Of a DNA stretch of 64,000 bases, positions 30,413 to 61,742 are shown piece after piece. Source of the DNA: Pseudogymnoascus verrucosus (Eukaryota); NCBI GenBank assembly GCA_001662655.1, contig KV460213.1, one strand, 5' to 3'. Under the pieces are notes generated by a model that was not told where the DNA came from, made no database searches, and saw only the letters and a program-made list of their open reading frames with translations. Position 1 is the stretch's first letter, and each line of letters opens with the position of its first letter. Both the position numbers and the translations under genes were made by a program.

Positions 30413-31095
30413 TATGTACAGTATTGTGTGAGTGGGATGGGATGGGATGGGATGGGATGGGCCTGGCGAAGCTTATGGCTGGGTGGGGGGATAATGTATG
30501 TTATTGGGCAGCGGTTTCGGTGTTATGAGCAAAAGGCGTTTACAGAGCGGGATTTTAGCAAAGATGCTTAGATTAATTTATGGAAACACTTCCTCGAAGA
30601 ATGGGTATTGTGTCTTGCTCATCGCTTTGTGTTTAGGCTATCAATGTTTTGTTTCTCAAGCTTAGTGGGCATCCAGGAACATATTTGGGATGATACCCAA
30701 GCTTTGGAAGTCATCTCCTATTTACTCTTTCTCATCCGCTTCGTCTCCTTGGCTCTCATTATTTTCTACCCTAGTTTGGTTTTTAAACCGCATCTTCCTT
30801 CGAAGAAGAAAATCGACTCTTTGCCACCAACACTGAACCATACGAAGCATCCATTCCCCATGGGTTTACGATGCCCCTCTCCGAGACCCCAAGGTATAAA
30901 AAGGCAGATACAACGAAGGGCCGGTTGCTCATTCTATCTTCCAATTGGCGGTTGTTGTTCCTTCTCACATTGAAAGACCAACCGTGCCTTCCCTAGTTCG
31001 GCGGGTTGGTCTTTCGTTCTGCTCTCAAGTAAAGAACGACGCTAACCAAAAATAGCAATGAAGCAAAAAGAGCAAACAAAAACATACAAACAAAA

Positions 31096-31158
31096 ACATA
31101 CAACAGTGGGTATTCGCTGGTGGTCACCCACCCAACTACTAATCCACCGATCTCAAGC
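31096..31158 (-). rRNA. 5S rRNA gene, 3' half (interrupted)
   Basis: Minus strand GCTTGAGATCGGTGGATTAGTAGTTGGGTGGGTGACCACCAGCGAATACCCACTGTTGTATGT followed by a T-run Pol III terminator; typical ascomycete 5S 3' half. Confidence 0.92.
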
Positions 31159-31328
31159 AAACATATGGATAATAGTTAAATCAGTGCCATCCGTCCTAGT
31201 GGGTGAGCCTTGCTGCCCTTGCCCCTTATTTTGTGATCGTTACTATCTCGACCACCTCAACCATCTAAAAGTGGGTCAATTTTTGACGACGCGTTGCACC
31301 GCGACATTAGATGCATGTAGGTTAGCTG

Positions 31329-31426
31329 GGTGAGTGGGTGAGCTGGGTGAGTGGGTGAGCGTGGTGAGCAAGGTGAGTAGGGTGAGTAAGGTGAGTAGGG
31401 TGAGCTAGATGGGTGAGGAAGGCGAG
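31329..31426 (+). repeat. Left subterminal GGTGAG array (10 copies, ~8-9 bp period)
   Basis: Copies counted directly in the sequence. Confidence 0.9.
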
Positions 31427-31698
31427 TATAGCTAAGCTAGGAAAATGGTATAAAGGGCTAGTCTCCTGCCTTCACATTTTAAGGTCCTCTGTCTGCAACT
31501 TTGTCTATTTTTTTAATATTTGCTATAATTGTAAGGATGCCTCCTCCCTCGCGCTCTAGGGATTAGACTGTTGGAGGTAATTGCGGTAAACGGGGAACTG
31601 CACACAAAATCGTGTGAGGGTCTCCGGTCACCGTAATCAGTCTCTACGGGCAGCAGAACAGAGGCTTCACAGTAGGATACAGTATATAGAATAATATA

Positions 31699-31935
31699 AT
31701 CAATTGAATTGCTCACTAAACTACGGGTCTACGTACGCTATTTGTAGGCATGGGGAAACCCCCAAACTCCCTGAAGAATTGCTTCTTCTTCTCGAGTTGG
31801 GGGTGTGAGACTGGGCCGAACGCCCAAACTAATACTCTGACTAACCGGGGAACCAGACAGTCCCATGGAGAAAAGTGGTCATTTTGGGTGCAAAAGGCCA
31901 CCGTATTCTCATGGGATTGTCCGTTTCCCCCAACA
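31699..31935 (-). repeat. Subterminal block X, copy 1 (inverted relative to copies 2 and 3)
   Basis: Reverse complement GTTGGGGGAAACGGACAATCCCATGAGAATACGGTGGCCTTTTGCACCC...GGGGGTTTCCCC...TAGCGTACGTAGACCCGTAG...AATTCAATTGAT aligns with 45160-45330 and 48717-49034. Confidence 0.8.
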
Positions 31936-33010
31936 TAGACTAGGAGCTGTCGCGGTCACGTGATGGGAGTCAGGGCGGGTCAGCCGAGTCGGACCTGCTT
32001 CGGATACCATGAGGGACTCAATAGGGTTCCCCCTTCATCTTTTTTGTATCCTTCGTAGTAGACCTATAGGATTGTACCGCAACCCATCCGACTCGCACTC
32101 CCATATGCTATTGATCGTGAGCTGGTGCCCTGTGTCCTTACATCGCGACTGGCCTAGAACATATGTGTGTCTCACACTCGTTGGAAACCTGCAGAACTTT
32201 TAGCTAAGTGGAACATTATGTACGCGAGCCGTGTATCGTCACACCACATGTCAGCTTATGAGATATTGATTGCAGAATATTTGATATTGCGGCAATTAAA
32301 AAGTAGAAGTAGTATAGCAGCCGCAGATCGAAGCTTCTGTTGTGTGGGTGACAACCGTAGTAAGCTTATAATAACTTTAATCAGATAAAATGACAGTTTG
32401 CAGCCACGGCGAACTAAGCGATTTAGCGCATGTGGCTTTCCCATTTATTTGTGATGAGGGACCGGAGGGGACGATAACGAATAATTCCCCTGCGTGTATG
32501 TGGTACAGAGTATGTTTTTAGGGGCTCGTTTATAGGCATCATTAAGCAAACGGAATAAACCCTACCAATACCTTGCATCCTGATCTATTTTCAATAATAA
32601 TCCGTAAGGTGCATCAATCAATATATGAGTACGCAGGTGACTAATACAGCCTTGGCAGGGCTCGGCTGACCCCCCTACTTAATAAGTAGAGCATTTCTAG
32701 GTCAGCCGAGGCTACACCCCATGGTTAGGTCACCTACGTTCTGTCAATATATGCCATGCGTCGGTGACTATTATCTTGGGGGCATACGGCTCCGTATTCG
32801 TTGGCTAGGGTCGCTAAGCTGCGGCTGACAGCCGTCACTAGATAAAGAACTATAGGCGACAGGAACGGAGGGGGAGGGGATAAATACAAGCTATAAGTAA
32901 TTGTAGTTAGCTGTTTCCATTTCTATTTCCATTGAGTAGGACTCCTTTGCCTGTAAGCTCACTGTTGCCATTTTTACGGCCTACATTCGTTAGTATCAAA
33001 AACCAACATT

Positions 33011-34498
33011 ATGCCTCGCCTATTATCTAGCCTTCTCCTTGCTTTGCTTGGATCCGTGACCAGCACGATAGCATGTACAATTCCTACCACGCCGCCAGGA
33101 AACACCATCCTTGACAAGTTCAGCATTGTTGTTCAGAACCCGAGCATTCCCACAGTGCACAACAAGGTTATGAGATTCAGGGCTAATGGCGACGACGAGC
33201 ATTTGGTGCTGCCCCCTATAGGCGTTGCGACCAACGACGTGCTGTATCTTCAAGACGGCCGTCTCATTTACAATGCGATTCATGCTGTAATCGATCTAGA
33301 GGTAAGATTTCCATAATTACCCCTAGGACGGTGAGTTGAGTAATGTTAAAGCTGACCCTGCTAGTACAACGACCAAGATGATACAACTAAGATGTTCATG
33401 ACTGCACGGGAATACCACCCATCAGCGGTTTTCAAGGGAGAGTATGCTTGCGATCCAGACACGGATGAGCTGCAGATCCAGCTGAAACTGGTTTCTCGCC
33501 TTACTGATCCGCCTGTGCTTGGTGGGCAGATCGGCATACGGGACGCGGTTGGGACATTGGAATTCCGATACTCGCCCCCTGGAAACACCAGTAAGTTGCT
33601 TCTAACCTTTCTTTACCCCACGGGAGCAATTCAAGACACTAGAAATGAGGGGCACATGTGTTGTGATTACTGACACTTATGTTTACCTTACTTAGAGATC
33701 AACAATGAATTTCTGCCCGTTGAGATGGTGATTTTCCGTAACAGCATAAGCCCTACTAGTACCGCTAAGCCTAGCACCTCTACGGCTGCCCCTCTAAGTT
33801 CGACTGTGATTCTAACAACTACTGCTGAACCGCCAACAACCACCGCGGCACTACCAACCAGCACCAGCGTTCCTACGACCCCAACCAGCCCAGTAAAGGT
33901 TGGTGACTACGACTTTCTGTACTGCTGGGCTGAGCCAGCTGCTGGTCGGGCATTTGCTGCTAAATCCACTGCCGCGGACGACATGACCCTCGCGAAATGT
34001 GCGGCCTTCTGCACCGCCTACCCATACTTCGGCACCGAGTGGAGCAAAGAGTGTTGGTGCGGCAACGATCCAGCAACGGGATCTGATTTTGCTCCATTAG
34101 GAGAGTGCGACTACCCCTGCGCTGGGGACGCATCACAATTATGCGGTGGCTCGCGCCGTCTGTCGCTCTACTACAATTCAGCCCTAACCGGTCCCCAGCA
34201 ACCTAAGACCGTTGGCAACTATGAGTTTCAAGGCTGCGTCACTGATAGTCATGGACAGCGTACGTTGACGCAGGATATGCTCGGGAGCGATTACATGACG
34301 CTAGAGACGTGCGCTACTTTCTGTGGTGGCTACACGTACTTTGGGACTGAGTGGAGTACTGAGTGTTGGTGTGGGAATACTCTTACTACAGGCGCTACAA
34401 TTGTTTATGCTGGCCAGTGCAGCATGACTTGCAGCGGCAATAGCGACCAGTTGTGCGGGAATGGAGATAGATTGAGTGTTTACAAGGTGAAAGCTTAG
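33011..34498 (+). CDS. Secreted protein with Ser/Thr linker and two WSC carbohydrate-binding domains
   Basis: Signal peptide; introns 33302-33364 and 33591-33695 keep the frame; two YFGTEWSxECWCGN...C.G.....CG...RLS motifs. Confidence 0.88.
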
Positions 34499-34739
34499 GG
34501 TGTGCGTGGTTGAAGCACAGCTCAGTAGCTACTCAGGTTAAACAGCAATATCTCGGGTCCAAAGATAGAATTAGATATTGATCGTGCCTTTATTTCCGGT
34601 GCCGACTATCCTACTACCATTGGAAACGTTGATAGTTCACTATTCAATTTCTATATAGTTGGCACAAAAAGTTTATAAAGCGTTCAATAGCGCACTTTCC
34701 TTACATTACGCGTAGGCAGAGTCTGATACTGCTTGAGGG

Positions 34740-35735
34740 GAGGAAGACATCCTCGCGCTGGATTGCTGTGAGATTATATGTAGAGCACTAAGAGGCAATG
34801 TACGGAGGAATTTGGATATTTCAAAAGCAACTAACTACTTCGTCCAACGGAAAAAGGTAGAAGGCTCGATGTTGCCTCCTAAACCGTCTGGCATGGATTC
34901 CAGCCAAAGGGGCCGATCAACCGCTGATACTATCAACCGAAAGAGATCATCTAGTTCACTTAACGCGCCCCTACTACCAAAGAAGCGCACTTGCTCCAGC
35001 TCCCCAACAAAAAGGGAGCAAACTCCGTCGACGCATAACCGAATCCGCCGTCGCGTCATTGTCCGCGACTACGGAACACCTATATACAAGGCAAGCTCTT
35101 ATGTCGCCATAATTGCTGCGTTGGAGAGATTTGCGGAGGTAAACAGTGCATTAGCTGACCAACGTAGGATACGAGTCTCTACACGACCGTGGTAGCATGC
35201 TCCAGCGCGACATGTCGATTGGAAACCTTATGATGAACGAGGATGTCGATAACCCTTCCTGGCCCTCATTCTCATCGATCTCGCAATTAAATCGGAGCAA
35301 GAGGAGCCTTCGGGAGCACGAAGCAAGACCGGCACGAAAGCTTTTATAGCTATTAGGGTACTCCTTGGCGAGAATCATTCCTTCATACACGATCTAGAAT
35401 CGTTCTTCTAGGTAGTCTTGTGGATTTGCATCCACTATAATGGGCCGGCTCAGAAACTGACAGTTGTCTATAGGTTTGATAAGTGGAACTTTTCAGATAC
35501 AGAAGAGTTAGCTGAGTCCAAGAAAGGGGCAGTGGTCCATGAAGGAGATTTTAAGAGGATGGTGGAGGAGAACATTAGGCCATACTACAAGTCACTTCAG
35601 CCTTAGCTGAATCGATTACGAAAGGTGGTATTTCCAAACGGCGGGAGATGGAAAAAGGAAGATAGAGGCCTATATTCTCGGATGAAGGAGGTTCTCCGTG
35701 AAGCACAGAGGGACTTGAATGTAGCAGCAGAATAG
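34740..35735 (+). pseudogene. Fungal-specific FunK1 protein kinase fragment
   Basis: HNRIRRRVIVRDYG, LQRDMSIGNLM, RTGTKAFIAI, HSFIHDLESFF*VVLWIC spread over different frames with stops; N-terminus missing. Confidence 0.8.
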
Positions 35736-36019
35736 GTACCACAATATATAAGCGCTCTCTTGAATATTGTTTCTGTGCATGATGCGCTATGTTTCATGAT
35801 ACACAACGTTGGCTAGATACCTCAACTTCTGCTGATGTACTTGGAGGATCAAACCTTCTAGGCCGCAGTCAAATGAAAATGGAGTCAAAAGAGCCTTAAT
35901 GGGCAGTGGGTCTGTTTCTAAACTCAATCTATTTCTGGAGTTCGCACCCCTGTCGCGGCCCTGTTCGTTTGGGGGAGCAAGGCCAGTGCGCACCTTCCCC
36001 AAGTAAAACAAAGATTTAG

Positions 36020-36240
36020 GTCTAAAGTAGGGGCTAAAGCTTAGTATCTTAATAACTATACTACTAGTTGCTTTAAAACTTAGATAAGAAGCTTTAAATG
36101 CCTATAAAAGGCTAAATATACATTTTTATAATTTACTAATAAATAGTTGTTAAGATATTTAGTTACAAAATTCATTATTTTAGGTGTAAAATGGAGATGC
36201 TAACTTGCTTATGGTGCTGACTTGCTTATGAAATACGTTA
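36020..36240. mobile_element. AT-rich relic of a pogo/Fot1-like DNA transposon end
   Basis: Ends in CTTGCTTATG..CTTGCTTATGAAATACGT followed by TA (TIR with internal repeat plus TA target); interior strongly TA-rich, RIP-like. Confidence 0.55.
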
Positions 36241-36909
36241 ATTTATAAGGACTAAGTTTAAATATCGCTCATTTAGTTTTAGAGGTTTAGTAGTTCCATC
36301 TATAAATCATGTAACCTTAGTAAAATGTAATCACCCTATGTTCTACCATTAAACTTAGCCTCTTATGGTTACTTTATAGCACCTCTACTCTTTTAGGGCT
36401 TAGATTACATAGCTCTAACTTATGGCTCACAAATGGCGAATCATCCCAAAAATAGGAGCAAAGCCGCGGGCAGTACTCTAGGGACTGGTAGGCCAGTTGG
36501 GGGGAAGGGGGGGGGAGGGGTTAGTGCTTTGTTAATATGGGAAAGAGAGCGATGCTGCATGGGTGTTTTTGTAAGCAAACAAAGGTGGTGAAACGCTCTG
36601 ATCGACTCAGCAGAAAGAGTCTTCGGGGTTCGCAAGGTTGGGATACATAGGTATATTGAAGGCTAGCCTACTTGAGGCACCTTTATTTTCTCTTATTTAA
36701 ACTTCCCAATACTCTCAAAAACACTACATATATCTCCTTTATCCTCTCTGCTGCCCATAAATATCGAAATCTAACCAAATATGCCCGGCACAATTATCAT
36801 AACGATCAGTTTATATATATATGAATTACAGGTATATAGTTCATGAACAACTTGCACCCTCCCTCTTTCCTGACTCCCTTCCTTTTCCAACTCCCTCTTC
36901 GGGACAGAT

Positions 36910-39900
36910 CTAACTACACTTCTTAATAATCTTATCGATCTTAGAGGTAAGATTATTAAGAAGTGTAAAGACATTCCCCAGCTTAGAGACATCATCGACA
37001 GTCATAGCACGACGCAGCTTTCCCAGTTTCCCAAACTGCTCCCCCTTACCTATAGTGCCACCGCCCCCAACACCGAGCAAATCGGCAAAGATAACCATGG
37101 GTGCGCTCTTGGGGTCCTTGACAATGCTAAAGATGTCCGCGGCGCCATTAGACAGCATGCCAATGAGTCCAATGGCGCCAGCCAGGTCAGCGAGCCCCGC
37201 GATATCCGCGCCGAGGCCGCCTACAAAGGGAACAACTATCAGCACTGCGGTGATGATCTCCAGGATCAGCTTCTGGCGGTCGGCGTTTGACTGCGCCTTG
37301 CTGATTACCTTGACCTGCGCAAGGGAGTCGATGGCCTGCTGGATCATGGCGATGGGCATGGCGAGCACCTGCGCTGGGTCCGTCCCCGAGCCTTGCCACT
37401 GCCCGAGTATCTGGTTCATCCACGTGGAGTCGATGGTGGACTGCAGCATGGTCATGTTGGGCAGAGCGGCAGTGACGATGTCCTTGGGGTTGGTGGGATT
37501 GACGTTGCCAGAGCCCTGGGGGAGGCCCTTCCAGTAGCTGTATATGCCACTCTGGTGACCATTCACCGTTGGCGGGGGGAAATCTTTGTCGCCGAAGGAG
37601 ACCCAGTCGGCAGAAATTCCGTAGTTGGCGGAGAGGTCCGCGTAGAAGCCGGTCGAGTTCTTGAGATCGAAAAGGCATGTAGCCTTGGGATCCGAGCTCA
37701 ATCTGGTCAAAGGGGCAGGTCTGTGTGGTGCGGTTTACTCCTTGGACTTGCCATGTGCAATCAAAGTACTTGTTACCAGGGCCGTCGACAGAGTTCATGA
37801 AATGGGCTATCGCGTTGGGCACCTCCTCCTTGATGGCCTCGACGTAGTAGCCAAAGAGACTGTCGTAGTCGTTGTCAACGCTGGTGTAGTTTGCAAGGGC
37901 GGCAGCGAGCTCCTTGGAAAGGGCATTCACAGTGAAGATCTCTGCGCACTGCTTGGCGATCGAGCCCACGGCAGCGACGACATCGTCAAGGTTATTGTAG
38001 TTCTTGGTGAAGTCGCAGGGGGGCACGACGCCGTCGTCGCCGTCGTCGGTGCCATCGGACTTGGAGCCCTGCGAGTAGTCAAAGACGAGGTCTATCGCCC
38101 AGTCCACCGATCCGCCGGTATGGTATTGCCCCCAGTAAAAAAGCCGCGCTGCATATGTCCTGTCCGCCACGTACGAGACCCACTGCGTGTCGTCGTACAC
38201 GAGGATGTCGCCGTTCAGGAGCTCGTTGTACCCACCCCTGGTAAATGATTCGCCTGTATGATCCTTAAGCAGCGTTATATTCCTGCTGCCGTAAAGATCC
38301 GGGGAGTTGGCTGAGCTGATGATCTGGTTGATTTCATAGTTGGATATATACCCGGATGTATTGGTGCAAGGCCCTGGCGTCGCGCCAGACTCTGGCCCTG
38401 TAGATAGGCACTGCGGACCTGTGCATCCAGCCTTTGCCATCTCGAAGCTTCGGCCATAGCGGGCCATACCGATCACGACCTTGTTCAGGGGCACGCCGGC
38501 CTTGGTGATCATAGAAATGGCGTAGTAGGTCTCAGTGGAGTTGGTGTGTGACCGCAGACAGTTGCCATTCTCGCAGTCCTCGTTGACGAATTTGTTGGCA
38601 TAGTCCCATTGCCCATGAAGATCGTATGTCATGTAGACAATGTAATCGACAACTTTGCTTATAGAAGCAATAGGGAAATTCCGCAGATACCAGTACGACG
38701 CCGGCGCCGCGATGCTTACCGTCCTACCCGCAGGCAGCGCCGCCTTCACGGACTTTAGGAACGCGAGGTAGTTGACGCCATCTTGAGGAGTTCCCGGTTC
38801 GGCTCCCTTGATATCAGTCGCACCAGGGTACTCCCAGTCGAAATCTAGACCGTCAAGGTTATACTTGTTAAGAAACTCAAGCAGACTTTTGACAAATGTG
38901 GCTCGTTGAGCATCCGTAACGCCCGCATGGAAGATTGGGGACGTATCGGCATCAGTTGAAAAAGACCAGCCGCCGAAGGACATGATACGCTTAGTGCCTT
39001 TAAGAGCGACAAAGTTGGCAAATTTCTCTGGGTAAGTGCTGACATCTACTTGAAAGTCTGCAGTAATAGAACCGAAGGCATAGTGGACGTAGTTGTAGAT
39101 GCTGGTGTCGATATCAGACGGGTTCATATGAAGGCAGGCCCGGTCGGCGCTAAACGCCTCAAAGTATGCAATCCTCCTGTATGCGACATCTGAAGAGGCG
39201 CCTTCAATAATGTCGACGCCGCAGTCAGAGATACACCCATAGGTCCCTACGGCAGCTGTTCCAGGGGCCTTTGTTGTCGAGTTGGTTATAGTGCAGAACT
39301 CTGGCGTTGTCCCGCACTGTCCCCATATATCGCAGCAGGAGTTCAGTGGACAGGGTTCAGACTGGCTAGTGTAGTCCCTTTCGCCGGGGCTTTGGTCCCA
39401 GGGACTTGAGGCCCGCAAATGGTGCCAGCAACAGGCGCCGGCATAGGCGGAGTTCCTGTGCTAAGACATATGTGCTGACCAAGCTGGAGGTCGCCACAGC
39501 CCATCCAACCCCATGTATTTTTGTTGACAGCCTCGATATTGGCTGTCGTAGTATGGTGGGCAGTGGCGATAGTGTTGCAGATATCGTGTTGCAAGATTGT
39601 GTAGGAGAAGCAAGAGCCGTCTGCGCCCGGCTTGGGCGAGAAATCTGGCAGGGTCCCGGTTGAGCAGCATACGTACTGGTTAAGAATGATAGGCTTGGTG
39701 CAGAACGATGCCCCGCCATTGTAGCTCTCCAGTTGGGCCTGGGTGATTGCGCAGCGTGCGGCCAACGCATAGCAACCGTCCCCAGCCCCTGCCTGTGTAT
39801 ACTTGCAGGTTGCGCGTGCGACGAGGCCACTGTTAGTTTCGCTTTCACCATCTGAGGGCGCAGGCGTAATTTTGATATTGGAGCCCGGGATCGTGCTGAG

Positions 39901-40734
39901 AGACACGTCGGGCCACGTAGAGCTCCTGTCAAAGCCATCGAGACACTGAGCTCGGCTCCAGCTTTTCAGAGCTTCTTGCACGGCCGAGAGACTCCCAGGT
40001 AGCATCTGCAAATACACCAAAGATATCGATAGCTGAGGAAGACGCTTCACCACCGCATAACTGGGCAGCAGAGCGGTCACGAGCATTTGGGGGTCTGGAG
40101 CTGGTATCTTTGGCGAACTTGTCGATGAGGCTTGCAGCACTTTCCTTCTCCACCTGTGAGCCAACGTGGACACCCACGATGGCTCCTCTGTAAGAAGATA
40201 GAATTATGCGCCCTCCGCACGTTGCGTCGCTGCTGAGATAGTGGCTCAACTGCTCGGCGGCTGCAGCGACATCCCTAGCGGTAGCAGCGTCCTCAGAGGG
40301 TCCTTCGCTGTCCCACCATCCCAGCTGGACGTTGACCCTAGTCTGCAGTACACTATTGCCGCATGGCGTGGTTACAGCGGAAACCGTGTGGAACTTGTCG
40401 TCATTGGAGGTGGTATTGTAGGAGAGCTGCTGTCTTGAAGTGAGCTGTCCACCCCGAGCCGCCACTGCAGCTTCGGGATTCGAACAGGCCCGGAAGGTGA
40501 GGTGGGTATTGGCATCATCCACTGGGTTGTGGACGTTGAGGTCTAGCAGGAACCTCTCGTCACAGCGGGTCAAGACCCTTGTGTTGTGGTAGTAGGTCCA
40601 GTTGCCCGGATTTGGCCCTGATTTACTACATGGTAAGGGACAGCGAGACCGCTGGGCATCAAATGTCTGGCCGTGCGCTGAGCCGGACAGGAAGACCACG
40701 GACAAGACCGCCAGGCAGGATGTTATCCGCCTAT
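36910..40734 (-). pseudogene. Killer-toxin-like (subgroup C) GH18 chitinase with LysM and CBM18 domains; frameshifted
   Basis: Signal-peptide-like segment lacking an in-frame ATG; two LysM; CBM18 CPLNSCCDIWGQCG; GH18 DGLDFDWEYP; hydrophobic C-terminus; frameshifts near 39975, 39355 and 37675. Confidence 0.85.
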
Positions 40735-42115
40735 AGGGGTTCGCAAAAAGTGATTGAGACCCTATAGTTGTAAAACAAAATGAAGTCTACTCCCACAATC
40801 CGAGATGAGGGGACGACAGATTATTATAAGAATGAGTTTAGAGTGTGTAGGTCAAAGAAATTGTCTTCAGATCTGCCTGGTAGGAGGGGAGTGGCTTTGT
40901 ACATACTAATAAATGAACGCCTATATAAACTTCGTTACCCACAGATAGACATTTGATTGGTAGTTGCTGTTACTTGCTGTCGCTGTTGGGGGCAAAGTAG
41001 TCTAAGTCTGCTCTACTGTTCTCACAAGGTGCTTGTCCCTGTCTGCAGTTCCTAGCCGACTTTTAGACCACTTATTACATTATTATCGCGCGAACAGAAC
41101 AGAATACGACGTAACCTCTACCTATTTGTTATACAAAGTGATAACTTTGCCACAATCGAGACGGTGAAGTGCCTTGAGCAGCTGCCTAGGTAGGATATAA
41201 CTCCGACTGCACCACACTCCAACAATAGATCGTTCTGTCGCGGAATAAAGAATTGACATGTGTTCTGTAGTACTAATTGTAAAAGAGACTTCGGGCCCGG
41301 AGGCACAGCACGCCGAATTGCTTAGTATAGTAGTGTAGTGCTTAATGCTTGCTACTATCAGTCGCAAAGTACTATTCTCGGCCGGCCCCACCTTCTTGTA
41401 TGGCTTTACCACATTAGAGTGATTGGTGGCCCTGATTCTTTAACCCAGCATAATGTTTTTGCAAGCGTTTTCATTGTGACAGGATCTCCAGGCGTCCAGT
41501 TGGTCGAACTGGGATATTCTACGCTAGTCCTAAGGCATGAGGGACCAGCTAACCTTAAAAAGCCAAGATTGCCAAGTGTTTGGAGCTATCCACTCTAGAC
41601 CCAACAGTGACGGAAACGTCAGGGGCCACGATCGTCCATCGCGTGAGCTAATCCACTCTCGGGCCAACAGATTACAAGGGCCCAAGATTGCCAACAGCTT
41701 AGGCTAGTCTACTTAGAAGGTTAAGCCCACATCAGGTGGGACTGATAGGATCACAAAGGATCACTGAGAGCTTAAATAGTAGATATGCCCGACGTAATGC
41801 TGCTTTTAAGCCGACTTACGAGTTTTACATAGGTATATACTCGAAATTAGAGAGAAAGAAATAGGAAGGAGAAGGGAACGGAGAGTGTTGGTTCAAAGGG
41901 TTACGAGCAACGGCATCTTATTTGCACGAAAGAGAAGAGGAAAGATGTGCCTGCCTTGCCTCCCCCCTCTCCGCTCAACTGTTTCTCACTTCTGTCCGCC
42001 TCTCACTCTCTCCCCCTTATCTCAACCATCTCCCCCACTCCTCCCCTCTGTTCTATAGTCAATAGTAGCCTCCCCTTGAGAGACACTCGAGAGACGAACT
42101 CTCAGCACGCCCACC

Positions 42116-43285
42116 ATGAAGCTACTGTATCTCTTGAATATCCTGTTCCTTGTTACTCTAGGCCTCGCGTCCACCCTTGCCGGCCTCTACTAAACTGTCT
42201 TTTTCTGGCATGCCTATTAGTTGGAAGTGCTTCAGTATGGACCTAAATCAACTCTTACTGTCAAGGGCTGCAAAGGGTCAGCGGCTGGGGGAGGTTGCTA
42301 CGTATGTTATCCATGCCCCCTAAGATGCCCCCTAAGAGGAGAAGAGAAAAAGATGAACATATAGGCATTTTGCTGTACCCCGCTGCATTGTTCTACCTTG
42401 CCTATAATGTTGCAAAAGAAATAGAGGCTGATAAACCTACTTAAGAGTTTAATGAATTTATCAAGTATATCGAGAGAACAGGAAAAAAAACTGGATTCTA
42501 GGGAAGCACTAGTGTAGGCATGAACCTGACCCCCGATGTTCTGGACACGGTGAAAAAGCTCAACGCGGCCGGTTACAAGAACCAGCTTGAGCCTGGAAAG
42601 CTGCTCCCAGATAACTTCAACATTGCCGACTCACCAAACTTCCAAAAGATGATGGGACCTATTATGAACAACATCGACGCTACGCGCCTGGCCATGAAGG
42701 ACGAGACAGGAAGTATACAGCTTGCCAATATACAGGTTGCCTATAAGTCTTCACACTCTCAATATTTGTCTCCTCTCTTCTCCTTAGAGAAGATGGCGGC
42801 TGTGACAGTGATAGTGACGGTGACTGTGGCTGTGACTGACTTTGCGTATTGCAGTGAAAGGGGTCTTAGATGGCTGACTGGAGGAACATAGAGGCCAAAT
42901 GCTCGAGGCATTCAACGGGTTCAAGGCTAAGCTGGGGCTTACATTCACCAACGAGTTTTCGGAGCACACGGCCCTAGACGGCCATAAATACCAGGTTATA
43001 GATCCAGAAAAGATGGTAAAAAGTAACCCGAGCATCACGCAAAATATCAAGGGTTTGATTTCTGGGTTCCCCGCATAGTAAGGCCCCTGTCCTCCCTCAT
43101 ACGTCTTAACCGAACAAGTCATAGACTAGGGTTTACTATTCTGTATCAACTAACCATAAAACTATCATAGCTATAACTCGCTGGAAACAAAGGTAGACAA
43201 GGGCGCCAGCCATCTCAACGCCATCCAAGCCACTTAAGGCTTCATTATCTGGGTGTTTGACGACCCTAAGGTGTGTAGCACTTGA
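42116..43285 (+). pseudogene. Small secreted Cys-containing protein divergent from the chitinase; multiple premature stops
   Basis: MKLLYLLNILFLVTLGLA signal peptide; introns ~42302-42446, ~2 more to 43170; in-frame stops at 42191, 42218, 42499, ~42875 and 43235; ends ...HLNAIQAT*GFIIWVFDDPKVCST. Confidence 0.7.
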
Positions 43286-43779
43286 AAACGGGTGAATATT
43301 GGAGGTATAGACGGGATTCAAAGTTTCGTACAGGGATCCATATAGTAGATCATAGTGTAATTATATTATGTGGATGATTTGAGGGAGGCGCTGTCGCCGT
43401 CTAGTGATACTTTCATTTCTAGATCGGCGCCGTTGGCTTAATTGAAACCAAAACTATAAGCTTGAACGCGAACATATCGGTAGACGAGGTGGAGTAATAA
43501 TTCCGGTGCTAGATTAGAAGAAAGATTAGAAGAAAAGTGAAGATAAATATTCAAAGTCGTAATGGTGGTGGTGATCCAATCTTGGGTCTCTAAGTTAGTG
43601 ATTGCTCCACTTAACCCCGCCTACCGTTTGTCCCCAGGTCTCATCCTTCCTTCTTTAACATTCACGACGGCGACAATATCACTAGGCTATTTCTAAAAGT
43701 ATCACATAATTAACCAGAATTAGAGTACCGTCGTCTCTTTCTGCTACACGCCAACTTACACTCACCAGCACCCGGGGTG

Positions 43780-44973
43780 ATGACTACGATTAGCTCCACA
43801 CAACAGCAGCTGCCTGTACAATCATTTCCCCTATTCCCCCGGCTTCCTGTCGAGCTGCAGCGCCGCATCTGGGAGCTGTGCCTACCCGCGCGCATTGTTG
43901 AGCTGGACCTGCAAGGCACCGACATAGTTCCCACGTCGTGCAGCCTACAGCAGACGTCGCAGATCAACAGTCGCGCCTCGCTAGCCACCCGGATTTGTAG
44001 GGAATCGCGCAGCGTTGCCTTTCTCGCTGGCGCCACGGAGCTATACGACGACGACTTCCAGCGCAGCGACACCCCAGAATGGGAGGCCATGAACGACATC
44101 CGGGATCTCTGGGCATCCCCGCCCACTGACGTGCTGCACCTCAACTACTATGGCGCTTACGATGGCTATTACCATTGGAGCGGCAACCCGGTGGAGTTTC
44201 TGATATGGTTAGCCCGCCGTTACCACATGCGCATGTCTATTGTTGCGTCGTTACTAGTGGGATTTGGCGATACCGAGGGCGCCGAGTATTTGTTCGGATT
44301 CGACAAGAATTTCGACTTGCTCGCCGAAGGTGGCGGGCCATACTTGACCACCCTGTGCGTGGTTAGCCTGCACGTCGGTTTAGAATCTGCGCTGTGGAAG
44401 GATGGGGGGATGTTGTTTGGGCGCTTGGGAGAGGAGCGCGTGAAGCTCATTAAGGTGGGCGATAAGGCCGCGCTGAAGGCGTATTACAACCTCTGGGCCG
44501 CGGGGCCGGTCGAGGATCGCGAGCCGGAGCAGTTTTTTGACTTGGCCGTGAGTAGGCACGAATCCGAGTGGCTACCCCGAGTGGCGCAGTGGAGGCGGAG
44601 GCTACTAACAACGTGGATGAATCACTGCTGGGCGAAAGCGGAGGAGGCGAACGAACTTGGGAGCATCCAAGACCACCAGGGGGTCTGGCGTGCGCCGAGG
44701 AACAATGAGGGGAGGATTATTCCAAAAGGCGATTCGGGTCCCTTTTCACATTATATGAGGCCGGGGCCTGGGTTGGGCGGTATGAGGACGCGTGTGCCAA
44801 ACGAGGAGCATCCGTGGGTCGCGGGGGGATTGAGAGACATGCCGTGCTTCGAGCCGGTGGTCATGTTCCGGCTCTGCGAAGATAAGTGCTACGCTCCTAA
44901 GCCACAGCGTACGAGAGGTTTGGGAAGAGGAGGGCTGGGTATTAGGGGACAATCGTCGCGAGGTTCTGTGTAG
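43780..44973 (+). CDS. 2EXR-domain protein
   Basis: N-terminal SFPLFPRLPVELQRRIWELCLPARIVEL and ...ICRESR motif; intact 397-aa ORF. Confidence 0.78.
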   Translation: MTTISSTQQQLPVQSFPLFPRLPVELQRRIWELCLPARIVELDLQGTDIVPTSCSLQQTSQINSRASLATRICRESRSVAFLAGATELYDDDFQRSDTPEWEAMNDIRDLWASPPTDVLHLNYYGAYDGYYHWSGNPVEFLIWLARRYHMRMSIVASLLVGFGDTEGAEYLFGFDKNFDLLAEGGGPYLTTLCVVSLHVGLESALWKDGGMLFGRLGEERVKLIKVGDKAALKAYYNLWAAGPVEDREPEQFFDLAVSRHESEWLPRVAQWRRRLLTTWMNHCWAKAEEANELGSIQDHQGVWRAPRNNEGRIIPKGDSGPFSHYMRPGPGLGGMRTRVPNEEHPWVAGGLRDMPCFEPVVMFRLCEDKCYAPKPQRTRGLGRGGLGIRGQSSRGSV

Positions 44974-45159
44974 TGCTCACTGCAATTACAATCTGAGTAC
45001 GTAACTGTCACAACCGTTATTATTGCCATAGCGGTGAATATTATGTCGCTGTCCAATCGCCCGAATTTACTAAAACGTCGCTGTCCAATCGCTCAGCCCT
45101 CGCTCAGTCGTCGCTGCCTTCGCTGGTGTCTCTCAGTCGTCGCTCAGCTGTCGCTCAAT

Positions 45160-45330
45160 TTGTTGCGGGAAACGGACATTCCCGTGGGATACGGTGGGCT
45201 TTTACGCCCAAGATAACGGGTTATCCCCGTGGGACCGTCCAACTTCCCATTTGAGACAGTGGCTTCTAATGGTATGGCGCCACACATCCAAAACCCAACT
45301 GAGCCTCGAAAGCCCAACTTATCAGGGTTT
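45160..45330 (+). repeat. Subterminal block X, copy 2
   Basis: GGGAAACGGACATTCCCGTGGGATACGGTGGGCTTTTACGCCCAAGATAACGGGTTATCCCCGTGGGACCGTCC...TTATCAGGG. Confidence 0.8.
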
Positions 45331-45408
45331 TGGCCAAACTTCGGTGTTGATACGAAAATGACGCGAAAGCGAAATTGACGCCAAACTGACAGGAAAATGT
45401 TGCTTGGC

Positions 45409-45480
45409 CTCACTCACCCCGCTCACCCCACTCACCCTGCTCACCACCCGGCTCACCCTGCTCACCCCTCGCCTCACCCT
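45409..45480 (-). repeat. Right subterminal CTCACC array (7 copies; inverse of the left array)
   Basis: Copies counted directly; ~9 bp period. Confidence 0.9.
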
Positions 45481-45551
45481 TCAGGCGGCAAGGGGCAGCG
45501 ATTCCACGCTATGCCTATTAGCACGATTGGGACTATTAGCTAGAGGATACG

Positions 45552-45612
45552 CAAGCTTGTGTATGGCAGAGCGGACGGGATGCCCAATTCTCTGCCGTCT
45601 GTGATCGCACCC
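45552..45612 (-). rRNA. 5S rRNA gene, 5' half (interrupted, partly diverged)
   Basis: Minus strand GGGTGCGATCACAGACGGCAGAGAATTGGGCATCCCGTCCGCTCTGCCATACACAAGCTTG with the conserved CATCCCGTCCGCTC; joined to 31096-31158 gives 119 nt. Confidence 0.85.
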
Positions 45613-46450
45613 GCGCTAAGACCACCACTAAAACCGTCCCCCGTTGTCAGCCTCCCGCTTCCGTGTTCCCGCTCTTAGACCATTGCTGCATTTTACTTGC
45701 ACTGCCACTAGGCACGTCCATCTTTCCTGTGGCGACCCCCTAAGCGACCTAAGAGCGATTAAAAACGCGAAACGGTTGGCTAATTCCGAAATCTGCCTCG
45801 GGCCTCTCGAAAGGCCGCATCCTGTGTATCCGATCACGACAGCGGCTTCGTGGCAACGGGGGATGGTTGACTGTGCTTCGATGCTTTTTCTTGTACTGCT
45901 CATCTAGTTCTGAAAACTATCCAAGGCCTAGAGTCTATGTAACCTCTGATCTGACACTAGAGCCTCGTAACCGACAGCAACCCGACAAGCGCGAAAACCG
46001 TTGACTTGTTCATACTATCGACTCAGCTTGATCTCATCTAAGATTAGTTCTCTAAACTTCTTCATTCTCTAAGTTTTACCACGATTATACGTAGCTAAGA
46101 GTCTACACTCCTGACAAAATCTGTCGGACTGTCTCAAAGTCAGGACTAGGTGTGACAACAACATGTCTGAGGCCATGGCGCTAAACAGCCGTCAATCTGC
46201 CTGACAAGTGCAGCTATTTTCGTCGATATGCCTTGCCTTGCAGTTCGCCTTACTTTTACGTTTTACACTTTCGCCTCACCGAAGTGCACGCTAGTTCTCT
46301 ATAGAACTGAAGCAGTTGCAGAGCGTTATGCTACCTACATAAGTACTTTGGCTCGCCCACTGCCAGCGGCGGTCAAGTGCAACATCTTGATAAGTTCACA
46401 GCGCATGTACATTTTCTCACGAACACATCAGTGAGATGGCAAGGTCAGCC

Positions 46451-48491
46451 ATGACAACCACTTCAGAATTGACATTCCCGGTTAGCCCCGAGTTCGACCC
46501 AAAGGAGCGAATTCTGGTATGCTGCATCTTTATCTTGGGTTAATCCGACTTGTGCCCAGAGTGTTAATAGTTGTTTTGTGATATGTTAGGATCACTTTAG
46601 AGTGATGCGAAAGTTCAAGGGTATCTTTGACGACACAGAGAAAGCCGGCGCAAACGAGGCTCTTTACCCAGCACCTCCGCCCGGCGATTTAGGACTGGAA
46701 AAGAACGCTGGGTGGAGAGCACAATGCCTTTTGATGAGCGCCGAAATCCGCTACCCGATGTATTTGCAACTTTTAGAAAAATGGGTAACCGCTCACGGCA
46801 CTGCAACTAAGGATGAGTGGCCGCTCCCACCATGGTAAGATTGATCCGGATTCCAGAACTACTTCTATATGTATTCATATTGGAGTTTTTGCTTATTCTC
46901 CTATGGCAGGGACGTGGCCATCATATTCTATGCGCATCTTCTTTCACCATTCAACTTTCAGCGCGACATAGAATCAAATTTCCCAAAGCTCTGGCAGGCA
47001 GAGATTGAATTTCCATTGGCAAGGATGGCATCGTCCAACACAGACGAGGCCAGCAAACGCGCATGGATGAAAGAGTACCCCAAAATTCCTTACGATATCA
47101 TCGCGTTCCGTGATGGAGGCAGCCAAACATACGTTACTTCGAAGAACAACATGGACATACAAGGCTACATATGCCGCTCATGGAGGTGCAACAAGAAAAA
47201 GACCTATGCGATCCCCATGGCAGACTGGGCCAGATACAGAGTCGCACAGACTAGCCTCACATGTCCAGGCTGTAGAACGAGCTTCTCTAGATATGGACGC
47301 AATCTGCAAGACAGGGTGGTGCGGTATTCCCGCGAGGAGTTTGGATACCCAGTCTTCAACTTATGGGAGAGCCCACAACGACAGTTTTGCAAGTCAGGCT
47401 TTGTGGACCGCATCCTAGACTTAGACGAAACTTATATCCTGGCGCCATCTACCGTCTCCCGCTACCTGAACTTCTTGCAGCTCATGAAGGAGAAGCAATC
47501 CATACTGGTACCGACGCTCGACATTGACCTTTTCTGGCACACCCACCAACTCTCGCCGGCTGCCTACCACGCCTACTGCAAGAGGCACATAGGACAGCGC
47601 ATTAACCATGATGACACAATCCGCACGGGGATGCGTTCTACGGCACAAGACATGACGGCCCATCTCTGGACCATGAAATACAACGAGTCATACTTTGCTC
47701 CGGGAAATGATGCGAAAATGGCTGATATCCAACAGCAAAGGGATGCATGCAAGCAGAAGAAGCTCGACAATGTAAAGGCGCTGGCCGCTTTCGACAAAAA
47801 CAACAAGCATATAAAAGATGCGCTAGACAACGCCTACAGCAGCATAGTGCAAGAAGAATCTGAATTGCGTAAGGTACGAGGAACGGCACGCGCTATACAA
47901 TCGGAACTTACTGCCGCCGAGGAAGCCCGAGATGCCGTCAAACCGACAATACGACTGTTTAAGCGGCGTTACTACCGTGGGCTACTGCGATTCCAGGTGC
48001 AACGGCACGAGGGTACGTGCCGTCGGCTGAAGGAAGACTATAGACTCAGGCAGCAGGAGATTGAGAGGCTCGATAATATCATCTGGGATTCCACACTTCC
48101 AGAACAAGAACGCTGCCAGAAGGAGTGGGAGGTCGTGAAGGAGAGACGAGGTACGTTGGAAAAGTCGCTTCAGGCCAGTTTGGATCGAGAGACATTGGCC
48201 ATTGGACATCCCAAAGACCCCAAAGATCGGTATAACGGATCATGGTGTTCTATCGTGCCATCCGAGGTGCAGCACAATAATTTCCCCATTATGAGCCCAA
48301 GCCACATGCACACGCATGCTGGTCACAGTTCTGGCGGAGATGGAGGTGCTTTTGGTTTTGGTTGTGGTTTTGGCTGTGGAACTGGCTGCGGGAGTGGATG
48401 TGGTGGAGGCTGTGGGGGAGGCTGTGGGGGAGGCTGTGGCGGAGGTTGTGGTGGTGGTTGTGGGGGCGGTGGGTGTGGAGGAGGTAGTTAA
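46451..48491 (+). CDS. Glycine-rich domain-containing protein (GRDP/DUF1399-like) with coiled coil and (GGGC)n tail
   Basis: Motif RYLNFLQLM...LVPTLDIDLFWHTHQLSP; introns ~46518-46589 and ~46835-46909; Gly/Cys C-terminal repeat. Confidence 0.82.
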
Positions 48492-48716
48492 GCCGCGTTT
48501 GTTCGTTGCGATTCTGACGATTTACCATGCTATTTATGCCTGAAACGTAGTAATATCTTTATTGGCAAATTTGTACACAGATTTTACAGAATAGCTATTG
48601 CTGTGTTCCATTGTTCATGTCTAAGGCCGCGGGTGCTAACGCTGTGGTTGAGTTCGTGTCTGTTCAATTGGATGTTGTAAAGGGGCGTCACGTGAGGACG
48701 CCTTCACGTGCAGGAT

Positions 48717-49034
48717 TGTTGGGGGAAACGGAAATTGTTGAACTAGCAAAAGTGAATCAATCCACTTCTGCTGTAGTTCTTATAGTCGGTTTTATTACAA
48801 CAGAAATCCGCGTGGGATACGGTCGGTTTTTACGCCCAAATGACGGGTTATCCCCGTGGGACCGTCCAGTTCCCAGTTGGCTTGCGAGTGAGACAGTGGC
48901 GCCATACTATTGGAAGACACTGATCCAAAGCCCAGCTGAGCCCGGAAAGCCCAGTTTATCAGGGATTTGGGGGTTTCCCCCAGGACTACAAGTAGCGTAC
49001 GTAGGCCCGTAGATTAGGTTGTAATTCAATTGAT
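48717..49034 (+). repeat. Subterminal block X, copy 3 (with ~70 bp insertion)
   Basis: CGTGGGATACGGTCGGTTTTTACGCCCAAATGACGGGTTATCCCCGTGGGACCGTCC matches copy 2; GGGGGTTTCCCC...TAGCGTACGTAGGCCCGTAG...AATTCAATTGAT matches copy 1. Confidence 0.8.
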
Positions 49035-49977
49035 CTGTAGAATTCGTGTGTGGTCCCCGTATTCCGGTCCTCCCACCAACAGACAAGGATGATATCCAAG
49101 TCCACGTGATAACGTGATAATCCAACTGACTGACACCTCTCTGGACAATCAACTTCTAGACAGCCGATTTACCGTTTCCGGGATTTGGAAAGACGACTTC
49201 CAACATTGGAAAACAGAGGACTTTATACGATAATTGTAATACTTACTACAGTAGTTGTCTACCTTGCAAAGCGCTAGCTCGTACATCTTCCCGTTTTGCG
49301 ATGGCCGTGTACGTTTGGCCGTTTCGTGCGGTGGTGTTGTCAGATAAAAGCAGCATTGGCCTCAGAACCGTTCACGCGATACAGCAATTGGTTATCAAGT
49401 TTCCATCAACAGAAGTCTCAAAGTTGTTGCATTCAGCGACCATCTCCGGCAGAAATGCCCAATTCTCTTGAGTCTATGGTCGTATGTGATTGTTCTTTGA
49501 GTTTGGCACAATATAAGGGGTGATAGGTTGGGACGTCAATGTGTAGGTATAGAAGCAGAGACATCGTTAGGCGCCGGCAAGAAGGAGGTTAGGGTAGTGG
49601 CAAGAAGGAGCAACGACAGGAAGGAGCAAACGACAGCATAAGTAACAAAGGGGAGGGGTTAACACGGCGAGATCTAGATGCTGCGTCTAACAGTACCTGT
49701 CTCCACAATGCCGCTTGCGATCCCTTATCGAAGGCATTTTTGCACCAATCCCGCGGAAATTATCGAAGCCACAACATCTTCCATCCCCTCTGTGCCGCTG
49801 TGCCACCACGTTCGTCAGGAACAGGAGCTTTGTCGTGCACGATGTTGATAAAAAAAATCGCGTGAGCGAGTTTTGAATTTTATAAGGGTGGAAGCTTGAC
49901 TCAAGACCCAGGTAGCGCGAGGCCTATAGGTGGTGCAGGGGGGACGATGGCATTCAACAATGATATGCTGTCCCTAA

Positions 49978-52852: not shown

Positions 52853-53211
52853 ACGGTTAAAGTGCCGGTATCAACATTCGGTTTGGTGGGGATGAAACTG
52901 TGCTGGTACAATCAGGTGAAAATCCGGGGAGAAGAAAAGATCATAGATATCGAGCGAAAATGAATAATGTCGTGCGTAGCAGTTTGCGGGGATAGGCCGC
53001 GTATATAACGGAATTACGAAGCATGTTGAGCGGGGCGCTAGTTGTCCCGCTGCTCCACATATTATGAAGGTGGAGATTCACTCCCAGGCCAGACCCGCAC
53101 GGCCGGTCCCCATACATTCAGAGACAAAAGACATCTCTAACGCGCTGCTTTTGGTTCCCTGGCCTTTTTGATGATTACGTCGTTCTTAAAACTCATGACT
53201 TAAAAATCCAC

Positions 53212-54421
53212 TTATTTATTCATCACCATTGTCTTCGTCTGTACGAGCTCGGCTAAACCCCACCCGGCTCCAAACCTGCCCCAACCGCTGTCCCTATAAC
53301 CTCCATGTAGCAATGTGCTCTCATCATGCACCGTTGCCCCGTTGATGTGTACAGCCCCAACCTGTAATTCCTTGGCTAAGGATAGTGCCCTGTAGTCATC
53401 CTTTGAGTGAACAGCAGCCGAGAGACCATACCTGCATTCGTTGACAATAGCAACAGCAACAGCTTCATCTGTTGTCTCAATAGGAATTAGTGATATCAAC
53501 GGCCCGAAACTCTCGTGGGAATATATGTCCATGTCAGGAGTCACACCTTCAACCACGGTCAGCACATTGGCTCTGTGCTTTGGGTTTTTGCTTCTGGCAT
53601 CGTGCTCAAATACTGCTGGGAGTTGCACCCTTGGCAGCTGCATCGGTCATCGAATGCCCAATGCGAGAGGAGGCCGTCGTTGTTATTAGATTTGTCATTT
53701 GTGATGTGGGACCTGGTTTTTGAAGGTGAGAGATCAGAGCTTCCCGGAACTTAGAAAACACCTGAGTGGCAATCAAGCAGGTATCCGTCGACATACAGAT
53801 CTGCCCGTTCTGTGAATGTCAAGTAAGCTTCGGATAAGTATTTGATCTTATGTGTATGTTTCTTACATTTAAGAAGGCGCCTTCTGCAACCAAGTTTGTA
53901 GCCTTTTCATGATCTGCATCTTCCAAAACAATAGCAAAGTTTTTACCCCCTAACTCTAGCAAGCACGGCTTTAATGCCCTTGATGCATTGCTTGCAATAG
54001 ATCTTCCGATTGCAGTACTTCCACTGAAATTACATTTTCGGATTTCCGGTCTCTCGATGATCGTATCAAATACTTGGACTGCGTCCTCTGCTCGGTGAAG
54101 AAGGAAATTGCAGACACCAGATGGGAAACTAGCTTCGCGAAACAATGCTGCGATGAAGCAATGAACACGTGGTGACAACTCGGTACCGTTAAGAATTGCT
54201 ATCTTTCCGGCTGCAATGGCCGGAAGGACGCTGCGTAAACCAAGTATGAGAGGGGAATTCCAGGGAGCAATCCTAAGTATAACACCCAATGGTTCTGTAA
54301 GAATCAGAACCTGCGACTCTAGATTTTGAGAGGCTGGTATGGTTCCGGAGAGAGTTGGAGAGGTGGTGAGCGATGCAGCTTCTTCAGTCATGAGAATACT
54401 GTCCTCGAAATTGATGTGCAA
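53212..54421 (-). pseudogene. Aromatic aldehyde dehydrogenase (salicylaldehyde/vanillin DH-like), probably pseudogene
   Basis: EPLGVILRIAPWN, LELGGKN, NGQICMST, ESFGP motifs; no N-terminus/ATG found; frame change ~53620-53560; G>R and K>N at normally conserved sites. Confidence 0.72.
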
Positions 54422-54777
54422 CTACAAAGATGTAGCTCAAAGGTACACTTATTTGTGATTCAGAACCCATTTTCCTAGTAATACGTTCAGAAGTCTCAAT
54501 GTCGGAGAAGAAACTTATTATGATAGCAGGTGACCTGTTATTGTATGTTGCAAATTAATCATATAATATATTCGTATTGTTAAAGTGGGCGTACCTTTAG
54601 GTGGTCGCAAATAGCCAAGACCGCACTTCGGAGTTGTTTGCTCGCATCCCGATATATACGCGGCCGCCGACAACTCGCAAATCGTCTATGTTATGAACGG
54701 AACTACACTCCTCATCTTTGATGACCTGGATGTAAAGTGTTTTGTCCTCTTCAATCGTGCAATCGTAGCAACCAAGT

Positions 54778-56241: not shown

Positions 56242-56518
56242 GTTACTGTGTACATGGAATGAGCATAAAGGACGGTTCAGAGGCCCACTATGTCCATTAT
56301 TCTTCCAAATTAGCCTAACAATGGGGCATTGGAAATTCTGTTGTGGGGCTGTTGTAAGCTGTTGCTTTGCCAGAAATAGCGCCAACCGGTAGTCCCGACG
56401 ACTCCCCGGATGCCATGGACACCTAGCAAGACACCAGTACGTAAGCAAGAGCTGCATTATAATACCACATCATTAAAAAAAGACACTCAGGGCTTTTAAT
56501 AAAATCAAAATATTTGCA

Positions 56519-61644: not shown

Positions 61645-61742
61645 CGGGGACGCAGATACAACCCAAGTATAGGGGAATATCAGATTTGTGGACTATTGAA
61701 TCCTAGATATTCCCCTATACTTGGGTTGTATCCGCGTCCCCG
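61645..61742. repeat. 37-bp inverted repeat (1 mismatch) with 24-nt spacer
   Basis: Arms 61645-61681 and 61706-61742. Confidence 0.92.

Follow-up and report, generated by a model that had tools for sequence, protein, structure and literature searches.

A 5S rRNA gene cut by two insertions

The window, i.e., the whole stretch of 64,000 nucleotides that was analysed, contains an insertion, here named E1, which occupies positions 31159-45551 (14,393 bp) within a 5S rRNA gene and is bordered on each side by CAAGC (Table 1). While the preliminary description assumed a single cut of this gene, it is actually cut twice, by E1 and by a second insert, E2. The three resulting 5S pieces display 0/64, 0/41, and 0/31 mismatches to an intact 5S copy, the 120-nt gene being thus undiffering from it. 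The CAAGC direct repeat matches the target, where it is found as a single copy in intact 5S genes, and the insertion site corresponds to 5S nt 57-61. Both ends of E1 had been described as recognisable, and its borders are indeed exact, with the repeats on either side. The terminal inverted match between the two ends is weak (about 20 bp, detected by eye and without statistics) but is clearer in some relatives, and the mirrored 9-bp repeats near the ends may represent recombinase arm sites.

Table 1. Features of the E1/E2 locus (positions in the window).
Feature	Position	Strand	Remark
5S rRNA 3' piece, nt 57-120	31095-31158	-	RF00001 match (Rfam), score below gathering
Left direct repeat CAAGC	31154-31158		last 5 window bases of the 5S 3' piece
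E1 5' (captain-side) terminus	31159-31537	+	83% over 379 bp to C27 element
9-bp tandem repeats	31317-31406	+	mirrored at 45409-45480; present in family members
367-bp dispersed repeat, solo-LTR-like	31569-31935		TG..CA ends, 5-bp target duplication
DUF7909 + 2xWSC protein gene, intact	33011-34498	+	two introns by eye; phases sum to 440 codons
Fungal protein kinase (PF17667) relic	34795-35730	+	split over several frames
AT-rich dispersed repeat fragment	36008-36241
3'-subterminal sequence piece	36341-36467	+
LysM + chitin-binding + GH18 chitinase pseudogene	36913-40770	-	killer-toxin-alpha-like
2EXR gene, intact	43780-44973	+	397 aa, 100% identical to P0273
Partial inverted copy of LTR-like repeat family	45161-45335
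E1 3' terminus	45332-45551	+	short imperfect inverted match to E1 5' end
5S middle piece, nt 21-61	45552-45592	-	begins with CAAGC, ends with E2's 13-bp repeat
Right direct repeat CAAGC	45552-45556		start of the 5S middle piece
E2, 3,862 bp	45593-49454	-	captainless, other terminus family; same 5S gene as E1
GRDP-like gene of E2	46845-48491	+	open frame
5S 5' piece, nt 1-33	49455-49487	-	with 13-bp direct repeat

The WSC and 2EXR cargo genes were confirmed to be intact, as announced, whereas the earlier list, limited to these two genes, missed the GH18/LysM chitinase pseudogene, the kinase relic, and the repeats. The product of the WSC gene is probably secreted, its N-terminus being judged by eye, and a paralogue of this gene is found on contig C11, adjoining an N-myristoyltransferase. 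Regarding the chitinase pseudogene, three frame changes were observed, two of which leave no room for an intron, and its expected start has no ATG. The 367-bp repeat has 40 other matches (71-91%), of which the best full-length one reaches 83%, and no full retroelement is linked to it; two long inverted repeats, I1 and I5, had been considered as candidate terminal repeats but turned out to be copies of this LTR-like repeat. Finally, since the counterpart of the 36341-36467 piece adjoins the 3' terminus in the relatives on C49 and C78, the segment 36468-45331 looks inserted behind this piece, and a joint between 36467 and 45332 was seen in the sequencing-run comparison.

The direct repeat of E2 is 13 bp long and lies at 5S nt 21-33, and the captain-side end of E2 shares 91% identity with an element on C61 that carries a DUF3435 gene. 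A 548-codon frame beginning at 46845 was tried as a captain of E2 and rejected, being GRDP-like instead.

Loss of the captain

E1 lacks the DUF3435 captain as first gene that characterises an autonomous Starship. The earlier claim that no relic of a DUF3435 recombinase or other transposase is present in E1 held through four search routes, all of which came back empty. A six-frame search with PF11917 returned 19 matches genome-wide and 0 on the contig of E1, and a cognate captain used as tblastn query gave a best E of 2.2 inside E1. A profile built from 152 captain proteins and run in six frames, with stops read as X, detected 0 domains in E1 or E2, the stop-ridden captains of C27, C52, and C25 reaching 117-163 bits as positive controls. 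Besides, Pfam analysis of 102 open stretches of at least 45 aa from the non-cargo parts of E1 and E2 yielded only fungal-kinase matches above the curated cut-off.

A search for a captain-bearing element with the termini of E1 had been proposed, and such an element exists on C27, which shares the 5' end. The match stops at the start codon of the C27 captain, whose N-terminus matches P0001. This comparison covers the 5' end of the C27 element, its 3' end not being located, and the C52 element has a whole broken captain together with a 41-bp match to the E1 3' end. Since the 5' homology stops precisely at the captain start codon, E1 is, at the level of sequence comparison, a Starship derivative whose captain has been deleted from its start codon on. 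The earlier view of a captainless Starship-like element, which neither of its two refuting conditions overturned, is therefore retained as a captainless Starship derivative; of the two origins it offered, a shuttle moved in trans is only slightly favoured over a derelict. The draft assembly, with its 151 contigs, yielded no cognate captain that is intact, those of C25, C27, and C52 as well as shorter relics all containing stops. As every cognate captain found in the assembly is broken, E1 is probably now stranded.

A family of small elements at the same 5S site

Twelve elements of 3.0-14.4 kb, namely E1 and eleven others of 3-13 kb, keep both junctions at the same 5S site. Ten of them have no trace of a captain and two have a stub, and the cargo is unique to each, the family cargo including NLR-like genes, chitinases, transporters, and enzymes. 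Among the 38 5' ends of the genome, a near-whole captain, always broken, accompanies 3, against 35 which remain collinear with a captain-bearing element for only 52-714 bp inward of the terminus; in none of the 38 does this homology break off between 715 and 2,243 bp. The captain remnants are graded (whole, partial, stub, none), and the C52 element, with its whole broken captain, measures only 13 kb. On C33, captainless units are stacked end to end via the 5-bp core. One-ended elements and mixed end subtypes also occur, and about half of the 5S motif matches in the genome are unjoined.

In terms of divergence, the 5S halves at the insertions differ by 3.8% on average, 9 of 29 showing no difference at all, while the 5' terminus nearest to that of E1 in the genome is 16% divergent and the closest pair among the 5' ends shares 91% identity. 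The interior of E1 is single-copy, no second copy being found in genome G000, and no pair of 5' ends in this genome has a common breakpoint and interior in the first 3 kb. Likewise, neither G000 nor the 22 metagenome loci showed any captainless unit in more than one place, although cut-and-paste movement need leave no second copy. The suggestion of a MITE-like amplified unit does not fit these data: E1 is 14.4 kb long, coding, and single-copy in its interior, and the breakpoints vary between elements.

E1 in sequencing runs and metagenomes

In runs X3 and X4, E1, E2, and both flanks are present at about 99%, with one gap of at least 300 bp (about 370 bp) over some 12 kb at 1.2% divergence. Run X6 has one such gap (about 820 bp) over 7.5 kb at 1.7% divergence, and contains 36463-45156 at about 98%, the WSC part reaching only 86%. 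Depth in X6 is low on the kinase relic, on E2, and on the flanking sequence, and in X22 on the WSC gene, most of the chitinase, and E2, and these uncovered parts prove nothing; the coverage of X6 and X22 gives a hint of between-species transfer, which was kept out of the evidence. The candidate empty-site joint 31153-45552 was recorded in 4/4 runs, in short contigs which are each compatible with any intact 5S copy and none of which is linked to the flanks of E1, and among the contigs listed for these 4 runs, out of 24, none spans the E1 junctions.

In metagenome contigs, the E1-type 5' junction pattern gave 0 matches and the 3'-end pattern 22 loci, including two duplicate pairs. Nineteen of these 22 3' ends abut a 5S middle piece, and one of the 22 is followed by a broken captain. 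None of the loci closed within the fetched DNA, where the E1 cargo is absent except for short kinase matches.

Movement in trans or deletion in place

E1 is explained here as a non-autonomous offshoot of a Starship lineage targeting 5S, which was moved later, with about an even chance, by a captain acting in trans. The captain would have been lost first, from the start codon on; a captain that was still intact, encoded by another element with termini of this family, would then have excised the E1 unit and placed it in its present 5S gene, the CAAGC core serving as the point of tyrosine-recombinase exchange. Such an exchange would regenerate the site and allow tandem stacking. Movement in trans is slightly favoured over deletion in place because of the perfect 5S halves and of the breakpoints crowded near the terminus. 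The twelve two-ended, mostly captain-free elements and the end-to-end stacks on C33 point in the same direction, and an engineered mini element has been described in which the captain acts in trans (10.1101/2022.08.04.502770). In addition, the insertion of E1 looks younger than its decay, since the 5S halves are perfect whereas the nearest 5' terminus is 16% away and the interior relics are old. On the other side, gene conversion of the 5S halves from intact copies could keep them perfect and void this age argument. Furthermore, the captainless units are each at one locus, the E1 interior is single-copy, the cognate captains are full of stops, and the presence of E1, E2, and flanks at about 99% in X3 and X4 fits simple inheritance.

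Falling somewhat short of that chance, E1 could be a derelict that arose where it lies: an autonomous Starship of small size would have inserted with its captain, which would have been killed by RIP-type mutation and then deleted, the element never having moved captainless, while further loss would have been restrained by the host genes on either side and by the useful part of the cargo (WSC, 2EXR). Simple RIP indices computed along E1 were uninformative. The graded captain remnants resemble such a decay series, the variable breakpoints and unique cargoes agree with it, as do the partly decayed cargo and the one-ended and mixed-end elements, and the C52 element implies that one deletion of a few kb is enough. 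Captainless "Derelict" regions are moreover already published (10.1101/2021.12.13.472469). However, the 5S flanks are near-perfect, intermediate captain truncations are few, and large gaps between strains are rare. Given the low gap rate in X3/X4 and X6, few large losses are expected in the captain, with less than one such event for a 2.5-kb captain within the 5S-flank time, as estimated from two events. It is quite improbable, although compatible with either of the preceding readings, that E1 is a fusion of two stacked or nested elements in which recombination dropped the captain, one having contributed the 5' end with the WSC block and the other the 3' end with the chitinase-2EXR block. The mid-element position of the 3'-subterminal piece, the difference between the two parts in X6, and the existence of mixed end subtypes speak for such a fusion, but the internal joint shows neither a 5S core nor a second terminus, and a loss beginning at the captain start codon is left unexplained.

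Relation to known systems

Starships targeting 5S rDNA are described in the families Enterprise, Arwing, and Voyager (PMC11162782). Like them, E1 lies inside a dispersed 5S gene, with a direct repeat matching 5S and a weak, candidate terminal inverted match that is short and imperfect, and its relatives have a DUF3435 gene lying some 350 bp in from the 5' end. In contrast, E1 is captainless and 14.4 kb long, with relatives down to 3 kb, where the reported family medians are 27-97 kb, and its repeat is 5 bp instead of 6-16 bp. Voyager of Macrophomina phaseolina has its insertion point 20 bp into the 5S gene (10.1101/2021.12.13.472469), which agrees with E2, whose repeat begins at 5S nt 21; unlike Voyager, described as autonomous and 74-124 kb long, E2 is captainless and 3.9 kb long, and E1 uses another site. 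"Derelict" Starships are also Starship-derived, without a working DUF3435 gene and with cargo partly retained. They are known, as described, by Starship-type cargo or degenerate recombinases, whereas the ends and direct repeat of E1 are preserved base for base, and a single terminus family here encloses many cargoes that are unrelated to one another. The engineered mini-Hephaestus, consisting of ends and cargo, was mobilised by a captain in trans; it is synthetic and belongs to another family with another target, while E1 is natural and its captain-free movement is proposed.

MITEs and Pack-MULEs similarly retain their ends, have lost the enzyme, and contain host-like sequence. E1 differs from them by its tyrosine-recombinase parent, its cargo of whole genes, and the lack of amplification of one unit.

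Captainless "derelicts" and 5S targeting are thus known from the literature, whereas a family of small two-ended captainless Starship derivatives was not found in the literature searched, preprint supplements being outside its scope. It is tentatively proposed that fungi carry a class of small, gene-bearing, non-autonomous Starship derivatives which would be moved by captains in trans, dock on dispersed 5S genes, and stack at regenerated cores. As the standard Starship finder is described, it begins from the recombinase and drops elements below 15 kb, and the published survey filtered out elements below this size (PMC11162782). Captain-anchored or 15-kb-filtered pipelines would therefore miss such small elements, leaving a layer of accessory genes uncounted. 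If movement in trans is true, a large number of small gene cassettes could be reshuffled by just one active captain; if it is false, the elements show how Starship cargo gets left behind in 5S genes. The genus has many sequenced strains, which makes the question of movement in trans versus loss in place directly testable.

Insertion site, origin and captain loss

The minus-strand 5S rRNA gene of the window is split by E1, a captainless insert of 14,393 bp whose interval in the preliminary description proved exact, with CAAGC flanking it on both sides. The cut falls at the CAAGC core of the gene (nt 57-61), which sits within the palindrome CAAGCTTG. The same gene has a second cut, made by the insert E2, and its three pieces match an intact 5S gene of this genome with 0 differences.

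Positions of the features in the window
Feature	Position	Strand
tRNA gene containing an intron	6638-6718	
5S rRNA gene, 3' piece	ends 31158	minus
E1	31159-45551	
Kinase relic	about 34.8-35.7 kb	
Stretch covered by run X6	36463-45156	
Stretch absent from runs X3 and X4	40587-40957	
Broken frames	42116-43080	
5S rRNA gene, middle piece	starts 45552	minus
E2	45593-49454	
Gene cluster right of the 5S gene	50250-62850	

The search for a captain-bearing element with the termini of E1 found the 5' end on contig C27: over its first 379 bp, E1 shows 83% identity to an element with a gene for the DUF3435 recombinase (the captain). That element adjoins a 5S 3' piece at exactly the base where E1 does, and the homology ends at the start codon of its captain gene. 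The reported lack of a captain near either end was borne out by PF11917, P0001, captain-profile and Pfam searches. PF11917 has 19 matches genome-wide and 0 on the contig of E1, while P0001, a cognate captain, gives a best match inside E1 of only E 2.2. A profile of 152 captain-like proteins detects no domain in either E1 or E2; its positive controls, three captains whose aligned stretches contain about 14-27 stops, reach 117-163 bits. Among 102 open stretches of the non-cargo parts, kinase pieces alone reach the Pfam cut-off. For E1, the target, direct repeats, termini and captain loss are shown. In its workings E1 resembles a 5S-targeting Starship, yet it does not qualify as an autonomous one. 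The closest named homologues, for the cognate captain and the 2EXR protein alike, come from Pseudogymnoascus.

In the accessible parts of the literature, 5S targeting at at least five sites (PMC11162782; 10.1101/2024.06.28.601215) and captainless derelicts (10.1101/2021.12.13.472469; 10.64898/2026.05.11.723792; PMC12506042) are already published, and one Starship survey discarded elements below 15 kb (PMC11162782). Searches of this mostly open-access literature turned up no description of naturally occurring small captainless Starships that keep both ends. The initial observation was real and correctly located; E1 as a single element is modest, and the interest lies in the family spread across the genome and in whether such units move in trans, a question open to testing.

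Cargo of E1

The WSC and 2EXR genes are intact, as first described, whereas a chitinase, a kinase relic, a solo-LTR-like repeat and a 3'-subterminal piece had been missed. A paralogue of the WSC block on C11, 82-90% identical, adjoins a housekeeping gene and has no terminus match within the 20 kb examined; it is compatible with capture of the block from the chromosome, giving no direction. The LysM/GH18 chitinase gene, 3.9 kb long, changes frame three times, in two cases with no space for an intron, and lacks an ATG at the expected start. The solo-LTR-like repeat, with its 5-bp duplication, begins 31 bp past the breakpoint, where homology to the captain-bearing element stops. Since the 3'-subterminal piece stands mid-element, the chitinase-2EXR block appears to be a later addition. 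The broken frames, with a signal-peptide-like start and no Pfam match, are probably another decayed secreted-protein gene, as read by eye. Among the aligned sequencing runs, X6 covers its stretch at about 98% apart from a gap of 820 bp, and about 370 bp that include the chitinase 5' end are missing from X3 and X4.

A genome-wide family of small elements

A 5S 3' motif has 91 matches; at least 44 have the middle piece attached and at most 47 stand unjoined, given that 17 of 117 middle-piece matches lie outside those listed. Both junctions are kept in 12 elements including E1 (3.0-14.4 kb; one with worn repeats), with no captain trace in 10 and a stub in two; this count leaves out C17, C30, C33c, C13, C15a and C57, in each of which an end is ambiguous or lacking, as well as C52 (13 kb), with a whole but broken captain. 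Cargo is distinct in every element (93 frames scanned), and comprises a GMC oxidoreductase, HeLo-ankyrin, a second GH18 with LysM, MFS, a sugar-kinase cluster and others. On C33 (L090 189-9101, L091), three captainless elements are stacked inside one 5S gene via the regenerated 5-bp core, the third without its 3' end. The C2 element (L094 204-9211) is inverted, which is possible because the core is palindromic; its 9 kb hold a compact cluster of an anhydro-N-acetylmuramic-acid-kinase-like gene, a sugar transporter and a Zn-cluster regulator.

With a terminus motif, 38 5' ends were recognised in the DNA examined: the captain is near-whole at three (all broken), partial at one, marginal at one, reduced to a stub of 20-85 aa at eight and absent at 25, of which three were judged on less than 1.4 kb and one is a possible false match. 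The family 3' end occurs in 22 metagenome loci, 19 adjoining the 5S middle piece.

Movement in trans or deletion in place

According to the accessible text of two reports, captains are tyrosine recombinases able to mobilise an engineered mini element in trans (10.1101/2022.08.04.502770), and Starships go through a circle form (10.64898/2026.09.21.753150). E1 had been proposed as either a trans shuttle or a derelict; it is a captainless Starship derivative. Movement in trans after captain loss has an even chance. In its favour count the perfect 5S halves of E1, set against a nearest terminus 16% away and an interior with old relics; family flanks differing by 3.8% (71/1,856 bases; 29/38 ends, the others having a 5S piece missing or too worn) or, in another set, 4.4% (88/2,009; 33/48 ends); breakpoints crowded at 52-714 bp from the terminus in 35 of 38, with none at 715-2,243 bp; and few large gaps between strains. 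Against this, gene conversion could hide how old the 5S halves are, and the crowding might equally stem from repeated deletions confined by host genes.

Against movement in trans, no captainless unit was found twice in the genome comparison of 38 breakpoints, the cognate captains found are all broken, captain remnants make up a decay series, and runs X3 and X4 match E1, E2 and the flanks on either side at about 99%. Sharing past breakpoints within 3 kb is confined to two pairs, an LTR-like relic and a captain 3' relic, and X3 and X4 show no bridging of the E1 junctions among the contigs listed. Deletion of the captain in place is a serious rival, its probability falling somewhat short of one half, while a chimeric E1 is quite improbable; whichever of the three applies, E1 can probably no longer move in this strain.

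The second insert and other features

E2 (3,862 bp) lies between 13-bp repeats at 5S nt 21-33, a site coinciding with that published for Voyager, which inserts 20 bp from the 5S start according to the part of the report available (10.1101/2021.12.13.472469). At its far end, E2 shares 91% identity with an element on C61 that bears a DUF3435 gene, which places E2 in a second family, in opposite orientation. A 4.5-kb relative on C20 has HET and kinase frames, tandem end-to-end junctions occur on C61, C48, C9, C4 and C46, and at L186 1470-1938 (C19) about 360 bp of the E2-family captain-side end alone interrupt a 5S gene.

To the right of the 5S gene, a Zn2Cys6 regulator, aldehyde/alcohol dehydrogenases, an FAA hydrolase, an FAD monooxygenase, a cupin and a dienelactone hydrolase form what looks like an aromatic-catabolism cluster.
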